Source: an uncultured Candidatus Saccharibacteria bacterium (GTDB taxonomy: Bacteria; Patescibacteriota; Minisyncoccia; Phycocordibacterales; UBA918). From it: a DNA stretch of 37,738 bases. Made by a program: the position numbers and the translations under genes. The notes beneath the pieces were generated by a model. It did no database searches and was not told the DNA's origin. It saw nothing but the letters and a program-made list of their open reading frames with translations. How positions within the stretch are numbered: the first letter of the stretch is position 1; each line of letters starts with the position of its first letter. The DNA is taken from NCBI GenBank assembly GCA_964637855.1, contig CAZWXM010000005.1:1-37738 (forward strand), written 5' to 3'. Positions 591 through 4,352 of this stretch are shown here, piece after piece.

Positions 591-620
591 AACCGATATC
601 GAAAGATATCGGTTTTTTAT
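591..620 (+). terminator. Rho-independent terminator
   Basis: AACCGATATC-GAAA-GATATCGGTT perfect 10-bp stem with a GAAA loop, followed by a T-run (613-618), 14 nt after the stop at 577. Confidence 0.75.
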
Positions 621-675
621 ATGTCATAATATTTATAAGGGAAGTGGTTGCAGAGAAATACAGCCTTTACTCTTA

Positions 676-752
676 TGACATATTCTCACACGCTTCGACG
701 TACGCAATTTACAGTAAGCCCTTAAACCGCGCGGACGCTCAAAATATATCAT
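676..752. repeat. copy A of a conserved ~77-nt inverted-repeat-closed intergenic element (candidate structured ncRNA or miniature repeat)
   Basis: Aligns end to end with 3752-3829 at roughly 80% identity. Terminal arms TGACATATT / AATATATCA. Shared core ...CGACGTA.GCAATTTA...TAAGC.CTTAA...CGCGGACGCTCAAAATAT. Confidence 0.55.
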
Positions 753-814
753 TAGAGGACGGGTCTTAAGTGAAAGGTATTGATTTTTAGCTAAATATGT
801 GTTATTATTAAAAT

Positions 815-3717: not shown

Positions 3718-3751
3718 TTCTTGAATGGAGATTTAGATATCTATCCCTCAC

Positions 3752-3829
3752 TGACATATTTATCGCACGCTCCGACGTAAGCAATTTATTATAAGCACTT
3801 AACCCTCGCGGACGCTCAAAATATGTCAG
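3752..3829. repeat. copy B of the conserved ~77-nt inverted-repeat-closed element
   Basis: TGACATATTT (3752-3761) pairs perfectly with AAATATGTCA (3819-3828). The core matches copy A. It lies between the convergent GH18 (stop 3717) and NUDIX (stop 3843) genes. Confidence 0.55.
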
Positions 3830-3842
3830 TCGGTGATAAAGC

Positions 3843-4352
3843 TCAAGGTTTAATGTGTTCCAAAAAGTGCGTCTCCAGTTGTTGGTAGACGTGCTTTTTT
3901 CTATCATCAGTAGCAGCAATAGCTTCGGCAAAGGTAACCCATTTAAACTGTGAAGCTTCTTGATCAGTGGCATTACTTAAATCAATTTCACAACCTAATT
4001 TTAATTCTAAAAAGAACCAATGATGAGCTTGTCCGATTCTGGCTACGGTTGAGTCAGTGTCTGAGTTTAGGTCTTGGTAAATGGTCCAACCAGGCACTTC
4101 TGATACTTTAGAAATTTCATTTTTGGTTAGTCCGACTTCCTCTAATAGTTCACGCCATAGCGTAGACTCAACCGCTTCGCCTAAATCAATACCACCTTGT
4201 TGAAACTGCCAAACTCCGATGGGGAATTTAGCTCTTTCAAATAGCGCCACTTCCCCGGCTTGATTGTAAATAACTGTACCAACGCCAGCTCTAAAAAATC
4301 GGGTGTCATTTTCAAACGGTGTGGGTGTATGCATAGGCGCTAAGGATAGCAT
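3843..4352 (-). CDS. NUDIX hydrolase (RppH / (di)nucleoside polyphosphate hydrolase-like)
   Basis: Canonical Nudix box GGIDLGEAVESTLWRELLEEVGL, preceded by WQFQQGG. The TGA stop shows the standard code. Alternative start at Met7 (4334). Confidence 0.85.
   Translation of the reverse strand: MLSLAPMHTPTPFENDTRFFRAGVGTVIYNQAGEVALFERAKFPIGVWQFQQGGIDLGEAVESTLWRELLEEVGLTKNEISKVSEVPGWTIYQDLNSDTDSTVARIGQAHHWFFLELKLGCEIDLSNATDQEASQFKWVTFAEAIAATDDRKKHVYQQLETHFLEHIKP

Follow-up and report, generated by a model that had tools for sequence, protein, structure and literature searches.

ERIC (IRU) and Correia/NEMIS, known from enterobacteria and Neisseria, are intergenic imperfect palindromes of 100–150 bp, and they are found in either orientation. 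These repeats are often co-transcribed, the resulting long RNA hairpins alter the processing or stability of mRNA, and some of the sites are common to relatives. Patescibacteria (CPR) have tiny, streamlined genomes. To our knowledge, their mobile and non-coding repertoire is almost unexplored, and in the literature we found no paper linking Patescibacteria (CPR) to MITE- or REP-like repeats. Here, a family of hairpin elements of this phylum is analysed. Compared by description, ERIC and Correia keep the sequence of their terminal repeats and Correia makes a TA duplication, whereas the present element has stems that are free in sequence and an inner fold specific to one strand. From general knowledge, and not from a search, ERIC and Correia have no sequence relation to it. 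We interpret the family, at about even confidence, as a non-autonomous, structure-dependent mobile hairpin element of ~100 nt restricted to one lineage.

The window, that is, the whole stretch of 37,738 nucleotides analysed, is contig C5 of the genome G000 (877 kb, 39% G+C, 92 contigs, 94% complete). The segments 676–751 and 3752–3828 (copies A and B) are aligned over their full length with 84% identity, and the likeness ends slightly beyond both, in agreement with the original prediction of a full-length match between unaligned flanks. The unit had been described as 77 nt long with terminal inverted repeats of 9–10 nt. The inverted repeats exist, but the unit is ~100 nt long and its stem is 16–28 bp. 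The arms were set by anchoring on the conserved interior, followed by ungapped outward extension of the stem, and the resulting features are listed in Table 1. The interior of each copy is ~55 nt. The alignment of the covariance model R1 spans 657–768 for copy A, and the R1 match to copy B spans 3733–3845 with 116 bits.

Table 1. Positions in the window of the two element copies and of features outside them
Feature	Position	Strand	Sequence	Basis
Intrinsic terminator of upstream gene, outside element	591–618	+	AACCGATATC-GAAA-GATATCGGTT + T run	Read from sequence
Orphan terminal motif, outside element	619–627	.	ATATGTCAT	9-mer count; nhmmer/covariance model
Copy A, 5' arm of closing stem	670–686	+	CTCTTATGACATATTCT	Ungapped extension, 17 bp with 3 mismatches
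Copy A, conserved block 1	686–701	+	TCACACGCTTCGACGT	Alignments A2, A4, A7
Copy A, core (54 nt: block 1, variable middle, block 3)	687–740	+		Alignments A2, A4, A7
Copy A, conserved block 3	730–745	+	CGCGGACGCTCAAAAT	Alignments A2, A4, A7
Copy A, 3' arm of closing stem	741–757	+	AAAATATATCATTAGAG	17-bp stem extension
Copy B, 5' arm of closing stem	3740–3761	+	TCTATCCCTCACTGACATATTT	22-bp stem
Copy B, core with conserved blocks 1 and 3	3762–3818	+		Alignments
Copy B, 3' arm of closing stem	3819–3840	+	AAATATGTCAGTCGGTGATAAA	22-bp stem

Copy A is placed between the terminator of the upstream gene and the promoter of a CAP-domain gene (start 815). Copy B is placed 22 nt past the stop codon of a GH18 gene and 2 nt before the stop codon of a NUDIX gene on the opposite strand. 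A third copy of the terminal motif had been proposed directly after the terminator. The 9-mer is present there, but its frequency is at the level of chance, with five occurrences outside the elements genome-wide against ~15 expected from base composition, and no partial match was obtained at this point by nhmmer or the covariance model. The proposal that the terminal motif is an extended -10 promoter was not sustained, as TGACATATT is the inner stem and most copies have TAACATATT or TAACCTATT without the TG. Farther downstream in the window, a GC-rich hairpin (3857–3893) lies between an A run and a T run and overlaps the final codons of the NUDIX gene. The congener G013 has kept this hairpin, with the stop codon placed immediately after the U run. 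The hairpin resembles a partly coding terminator that would work in both directions. We also considered that copies A and B delimit a CAP-umuD-GH18 cassette. The idea was rejected: many congeners have the same CAP-S24 peptidase-GH18-NUDIX block, G013 has no copy B, and no sampled congener has an R1 match beside the CAP gene.

The two copies had been regarded as a pair, but they are members of a dispersed family. The search of the genome and its relatives by nhmmer, which the original prediction had suggested, gave 29 matches in the own genome, and the covariance model R1 gave 27, corresponding to ~27 copies in 877 kb; more than 120 copies were found elsewhere. Such numbers greatly exceed what chance would produce. 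All the own-genome copies are intergenic, both orientations occur, and the orientation relative to the neighbours is mixed. No recurrent gene or protein family is found beside the own-genome copies. Five pairs of copies have members within ~3 kb of each other. According to the R1 search, 26 of the 150 genomes of the same GTDB family are positive with 1–27 copies each, whereas none of the 149 genomes from other families in the order (~118 families) is positive. The positive genomes are distributed among the genera g1 (22/113), g28 (1/3, with 17 copies) and g33 (3/5), and genus g30 has none (0/21). They cluster among the closest relatives of G000, as judged by Xer identity. An exact-pattern scan added five Patescibacteria MAGs with the element, together with 85 metagenome stretches, mostly from groundwater and similar sources; R1 applied to 70 of these stretches gave 57 matches. 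The same scan gave no match in the IMG/VR viral contigs. The identity of the variable middle is 73–74% within expanded genomes and 52–60% between genomes, whereas the identity of the conserved blocks is 77–89% with no consistent difference within and between genomes. The element family is lineage-restricted and patchy, with genome-specific expansions.

Some features of individual copies were also observed. In independent assemblies of the same strain, contigs break inside the element, as expected for a repeat. Three contigs of G000 (C21, C48 and C51) carry identical or 96%-identical versions of one locus including the element, which indicates strain heterogeneity or a duplicated assembly, consistent with the contamination of 4.96%. 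A tandem pair in the same orientation, 117 nt from start to start, is present in L193 (8442–8671), L200, L201, L202 and L213, five related metagenome contigs from different samples. Two truncated copies (C34:289–332 and C8:5160–5198) consist of the 3' half only, namely block 3 and the 3' arm, and the start of each immediately follows the stop codon of the preceding gene.

The pairing of the closing stem was analysed using 151 distinct copies. The stems contain 2877 Watson–Crick pairs and 246 mismatches, and RNAalifold detected double changes at 19 of the 21 stem pairs. These results indicate that the pairing is under selection, the point on which the original prediction had looked to covariation, and the family alignments bear out its view of a conserved element closed by inverted repeats. 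The stem sequences themselves are essentially unrelated between genomes, and they are variable within genomes too. At the outer 12 stem positions, an arm forms 10.6 of 12 pairs with its own partner, and 3.8 of 12 with arms from other genomes. In the interior, TTTTTCACACGCTCCGAYGT and CCCCGCGGACGCTCAAAATA are almost invariant, whereas the ~25 nt between them vary except for a GCAC motif. A hairpin in this middle region was looked for, and neither consistent pairing nor covariation was found. Judged from these alignments, the element behaves as if a folded single strand, and not the DNA letters alone, were under selection.

The combination of a sequence-free stem and an invariant apical domain is the typical pattern of a structured RNA. 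A functional RNA made from the complement of the window + strand, for example, a module for protein binding or processing, or a small ribozyme, is the main rival of the mobile element, and we consider it possible but rather unlikely. According to this explanation, the copies are kept at each locus for stabilization or cleavage of the transcript or for sequestering of a protein, and the multi-copy spread is secondary. It accounts well for the stems of copies within one genome, which are still 92% paired when the middle regions differ by ~27%, and for low-copy genomes such as G019 and G006, which keep three or four very divergent copies with perfect stems. On the other hand, ~80% of the genomes in the genus are without the element.

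The strand that folds was examined using the types of mismatch. In the window + orientation, the 246 mismatches comprise 128 of the A-C type, 57 of the G-T type and 61 others. On the complementary strand, the A-C mismatches become G-U (or G-T) wobbles. The excess of A-C over G-T is observed for co-directional neighbours in the plus orientation (36 versus 15) and in the minus orientation (27 versus 8), for divergent neighbours (19 versus 6) and for convergent neighbours (10 versus 6). As the excess is present in every context, the strand asymmetry is a property of the element and not of local transcription. This independence of the transcription context argues against the functional RNA.

For the inner structure, 118 distinct sequences of the minus strand were aligned with the conserved blocks as anchors (alignment A7). 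The alignment supports a 4-bp helix (helix A) adjoining the long stem on the minus strand. The first pair is G-U in 65, G-C in 33 and A-U in 20 sequences with none unpaired; the second is C-G in 112 and U-A in 5; the third is G-U in 72, A-U in 35 and C-G in 8; and the fourth is U-G in 112 and U-A in 3. On the + strand, the same positions read A-C, C-G, A-C and C-A, and no helix is formed. Beyond helix A, a 3-nt bulge is followed by a 3-bp helix, CCG/CGG, and a tandem G-A/A-G mismatch is located between helix A and the long stem. In one G100 sublineage, the tandem G-A and the wobbles are replaced by Watson–Crick pairs. The pairing GCT(T/C)CG/CGGACGC had been proposed for both copies, and it can form. 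Its inner 3 bp are backed by compensatory changes, but its outer register is not; the first pair of that register is unpaired in 20 of the 118 sequences, and the favoured outer register is possible only on the opposite strand. Folded as RNA, copy A gives -32.3 kcal/mol (z -2.6) for the minus strand and -19.1 kcal/mol (z -0.6) for the plus strand, and copy B gives -33.9 and -24.9 kcal/mol, respectively; this gain of 9–13 kcal/mol is partly compositional. The original prediction had left the strand undecided. The wobble statistics and the covariation of the inner helix resolve this question: both indicate that folding occurs in the strand complementary to the window + strand. The better folding of the minus strand is also expected for the functional RNA, as are the interconversion of G-U with G-C and A-U, but never A-C, in the inner helix, and the tandem G-A/A-G and G-U helix, which are more natural in RNA than in DNA.

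These strand-specific features bear on another explanation, in which the element is a palindrome acting at the DNA level. A cruciform with a protein-binding core would be an orientation-independent architectural or regulatory site, for example, a site for a nucleoid protein, or an insulator placed at the end of an operon or between promoters. In the core there are two direct ACGCTC repeats ~45 bp apart, copies are located just upstream of -35 boxes or after stop codons and terminators in either orientation, and some of the sites are probably in untranscribed spacers. For such a site, however, A-C and G-T mismatches should be equally frequent (the counts are 128 and 57), the inner helix pairs on only one strand, and most relatives are without the element at the same promoters, so that it is dispensable there. 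Thus, we regard the DNA-level site as very unlikely.

The surroundings of the copies are difficult to reconcile with the functional RNA. Their orientation is mixed (34 co-directional plus, 22 co-directional minus, 23 divergent and 13 convergent), and about one-third of the copies have both neighbours antisense to the folding strand. For some copies, which are flanked by divergent leaderless promoters, transcription of either strand is not expected. Promoters were scored with 13 possible points, 12 for hexamer matches and one for the TG of an extended -10. A score of at least 9 was obtained in five of 103 plus-strand and two of 103 minus-strand upstream regions, and no sigma-70-like promoter at a fixed distance was found on either strand. 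A T run after the stem was not found, and no terminator follows the element. These results indicate that the element is not a self-contained RNA gene, and the lack of a dedicated promoter on either side argues against an independent RNA gene. The Rfam 15 scan of the window was empty at the gathering thresholds, in accordance with the original prediction of no match to a known RNA. With permissive thresholds, only chance hairpin matches appeared (E ≤ 10 around copy A; E ≤ 1 for both strands of 20 diverse members). Among Rfam families, the small ribozymes (hammerhead, twister, pistol, hatchet and HDV-like), small SRP RNA, Y RNA and group II D5-D6 gave no match, which also speaks against a functional RNA. 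Neither tRNA nor tmRNA is present.

Empty and filled sites were identified by comparison of congeners. At the site of copy B, the spacer between the GH18 and NUDIX genes is 148 nt here and 27 nt in the element-free congener G013, which has the same gene order, whereas in the congener G123 this site is occupied by a copy. A second site, the clearest case, is the spacer separating a stop codon from the next promoter, and it is marked by the conserved sequence TGGGGA(A/C)AA. This site is empty in seven genomes: G000 (C4:21565–21614), G013, G006, G139, G002, G316 and G178. It is filled in G119 and the metagenome contig L199 in the plus orientation, and in L224 and G160 in the minus orientation. 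The flanks of the filled loci still align at ~70%, whereas the four stems share nothing. Unrelated stems within alignable flanks indicate independent insertions, and not one old copy. Inversion in situ as the cause of the opposite orientations was rejected, since the arms are unrelated. That one site is empty or filled in either orientation stands against a functional RNA. The TGGGGA(A/C)AA point also holds unrelated insertions in L270 (G063), L271 (G019), L285 (G062) and L290 (G167), which are strong terminator hairpins or longer structured sequences of ~100 nt (G167) to ~150 nt (G063). This point is a permissive point of a compact spacer.

Several intergenic regions hold a copy in more than one species, sometimes at an identical nucleotide position; examples are the regions following GH18 and upstream of the promoters of S16 and PfkB. 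Sites common to several species are in favour of the functional RNA, and those at the same nucleotide could be old, maintained copies. Insertion at permissive points explains copies at the same region in different species, and the independent insertions weaken, but do not abolish, the reading as old, maintained copies for some of them. In C20:6280–6500 and the congener locus L060, the element lies between the divergent promoters of the PfkB kinase and ribosomal protein L25 genes, and its distance to the PfkB start is 53 nt in each of the two species. The PfkB promoter is TTGACT-17 nt-TATACT-7 nt-ATG, and the L25 gene has an extended -10, TGgTAATCT, 7 nt before ATG. Both promoters appear to be leaderless.

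Direct repeats of 5–6 bp (ACAAGT, GACAA) flank two of the four filled copies at the TGGGGA(A/C)AA site, and none is found at G160. Across 99 copies, neither a common flanking motif nor a target-site duplication of fixed length was found. Strain-level insertion polymorphism was not detected by exact-protein look-ups of four flanking genes, which retrieved this one strain, from a single study, with an unchanged arrangement. Another reading is an ordinary MITE, descended from an insertion sequence of the DDE type and moved through terminal inverted repeats; the element does have such repeats, is small, intergenic and multi-copy, and forms local clusters, namely the five pairs of copies described above. 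In a MITE, however, the inverted repeats should not be the least conserved part of the sequence with the interior the most conserved, as is the case here, and a target duplication of fixed length would be expected, which is not apparent in the copies. A parent element was sought as half-elements 70–6000 nt apart, and only adjacent full copies were found; the genome has neither a split nor a full-length parent, and rve, the one DDE transposase family searched, is absent. We therefore consider that an ordinary MITE is extremely unlikely.

Other candidate enzymes and RNA-binding proteins were searched for in the own genome (94% complete). Y1_Tnp (PF01797) is absent, whereas control genomes gave matches, and the TnpB zinc ribbon (PF07282), the reverse transcriptase RVT_1 (PF00078), TROVE (PF05731) and L7Ae (PF01248) are absent as well. 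A repeat derived from a retroelement (retron, group II intron or DGR) was rejected, as PF00078 is absent. A kink-turn bound by L7Ae was rejected, too: the tandem G-A/A-G is present, but the comparative register leaves no 3-nt bulge for it, and PF01248 is absent. A Y RNA bound by Ro60 was rejected, because PF05731 is absent and Rfam gave no match. The sole tyrosine recombinase (C7:6852–7763, minus strand) is an Xer-like housekeeping gene, and it is found in 146 of the 151 genomes of the family with or without the element. It was therefore rejected as a specific partner, also because it adjoins the element in only one other genome. Two sister copies in the same orientation bracket this gene (C7:6404–7937), and they are the only two copies with a common 1-nt insertion in the middle region. 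In the congener G164, a copy is located 83 nt upstream of the Xer-like ortholog. In genus g1, the Xer identity to G000 is bimodal (73–89% and 31–48%), which suggests two deep subclades or two non-orthologous recombinases.

The original prediction had held both a structured RNA and a MITE-like repeat to be possible, and at that level it stays right. The mobile hairpin element is our preferred explanation, since the family is multi-copy and patchy, shows genome-specific expansions, is inserted in both orientations, has empty sites and has a structure defined on one strand. The long closing stem, free in sequence but obliged to pair, would close the apical domain with its two almost invariant blocks. 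We infer that the element propagates as a single strand, either RNA or single-stranded DNA, which is folded and complementary to the window + strand. The conserved apical domain and the hairpin shape would be recognized by a protein acting in trans, by analogy with the logic of REP/RAYT, the IS200/IS605 ends and attC. New copies would land in either orientation at the few permissive intergenic points, which follow a stop codon or terminator or immediately precede a promoter, and would then persist. The G-U-rich helix and the tandem G-A favour an RNA intermediate, whereas the absence of reverse transcriptase favours DNA. The copies at 676–752 and 3752–3829 are most likely passive insertions, and their read-through would add a long hairpin to the transcript.

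Several observations stand against the mobile element. No transposase or other mobilizing enzyme was found in the own genome; no constant target-site duplication and no conserved flanking motif were found at the copies; and near-identical strains, all from one study, show no insertion polymorphism. The well-paired stems of copies with diverged middle regions may reflect continued selection, which implies a local function. In the own genome, 19 of 25 copies (assembly-duplicate contigs included) have the + orientation on the G-rich strand, and this is not predicted by a model of single-stranded DNA on the lagging-strand template with a minus-strand fold. The same GC-skew test is uninformative in G119, where the skew is below 0.04.

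A more speculative explanation, which we consider unlikely, is that the element is the recognition module of an undescribed mobilization or processing system of Patescibacteria. It might be an attC-like mobile unit, free-standing and structure-guided with an as yet hypothetical driving protein, or a small RNA of a new class, catalytic or protein-sequestering, with an active minus-strand fold. The fold is modelled as a long stem, the tandem G-A, the G-U-rich helix, a bulge and a conserved loop of 36 nt.

With more than 150 sequenced members, the family is a clean case of a structure-recognized element in a reduced genome. Its covariation is very strong, the strand that folds has been resolved, and sites with and without the element are documented. 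In practice, the family can serve to mark assembly breaks, to type strains of the lineage and, as it stands, to seed an Rfam-style model. It also poses the question of which protein moves or binds the element in genomes without Y1, TnpB, rve and RVT_1, the families searched.

The mobile hairpin element shares features with several known systems. Similarly to REP/REPIN-RAYT, it is an intergenic multi-copy palindrome with a folded single strand and lineage-specific expansions, without DDE-type terminal repeats and apparently without a fixed target duplication. REPs, however, are 20–40 nt with a conserved GTAG foot, and the RAYT gene co-occurs, whereas the element is ~100 nt with a conserved apical domain of 55 nt; no conserved motif is found at the foot of its stem, and the own genome has no Y1_Tnp. 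The ends of IS200/IS605 and PATEs are hairpins on one strand that transpose without target duplication, and a strand bias is expected for them. IS200/IS605 has short subterminal hairpins with TnpA (Y1) and often TnpB, whereas the element is one hairpin over its whole length and both genes are absent. In classical MITEs, the terminal repeats are conserved and the interior drifts; the element is the reverse. The sites of attC are imperfect hairpins that vary in sequence and are conserved in structure, in which one folded strand is active and pairing and bulged bases matter more than sequence, and the element resembles them in these respects. In attC, the base (the R and L boxes) is conserved, the centre is variable and the sites form arrays near intI, whereas in the element the apex is conserved, the base is free and the copies are dispersed. 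By these features, the element is not a member of REP/RAYT, the IS200/IS605 ends or attC. It is a real, previously undescribed family, for which Rfam has no model, and a variation on the theme of small palindromic repeats.
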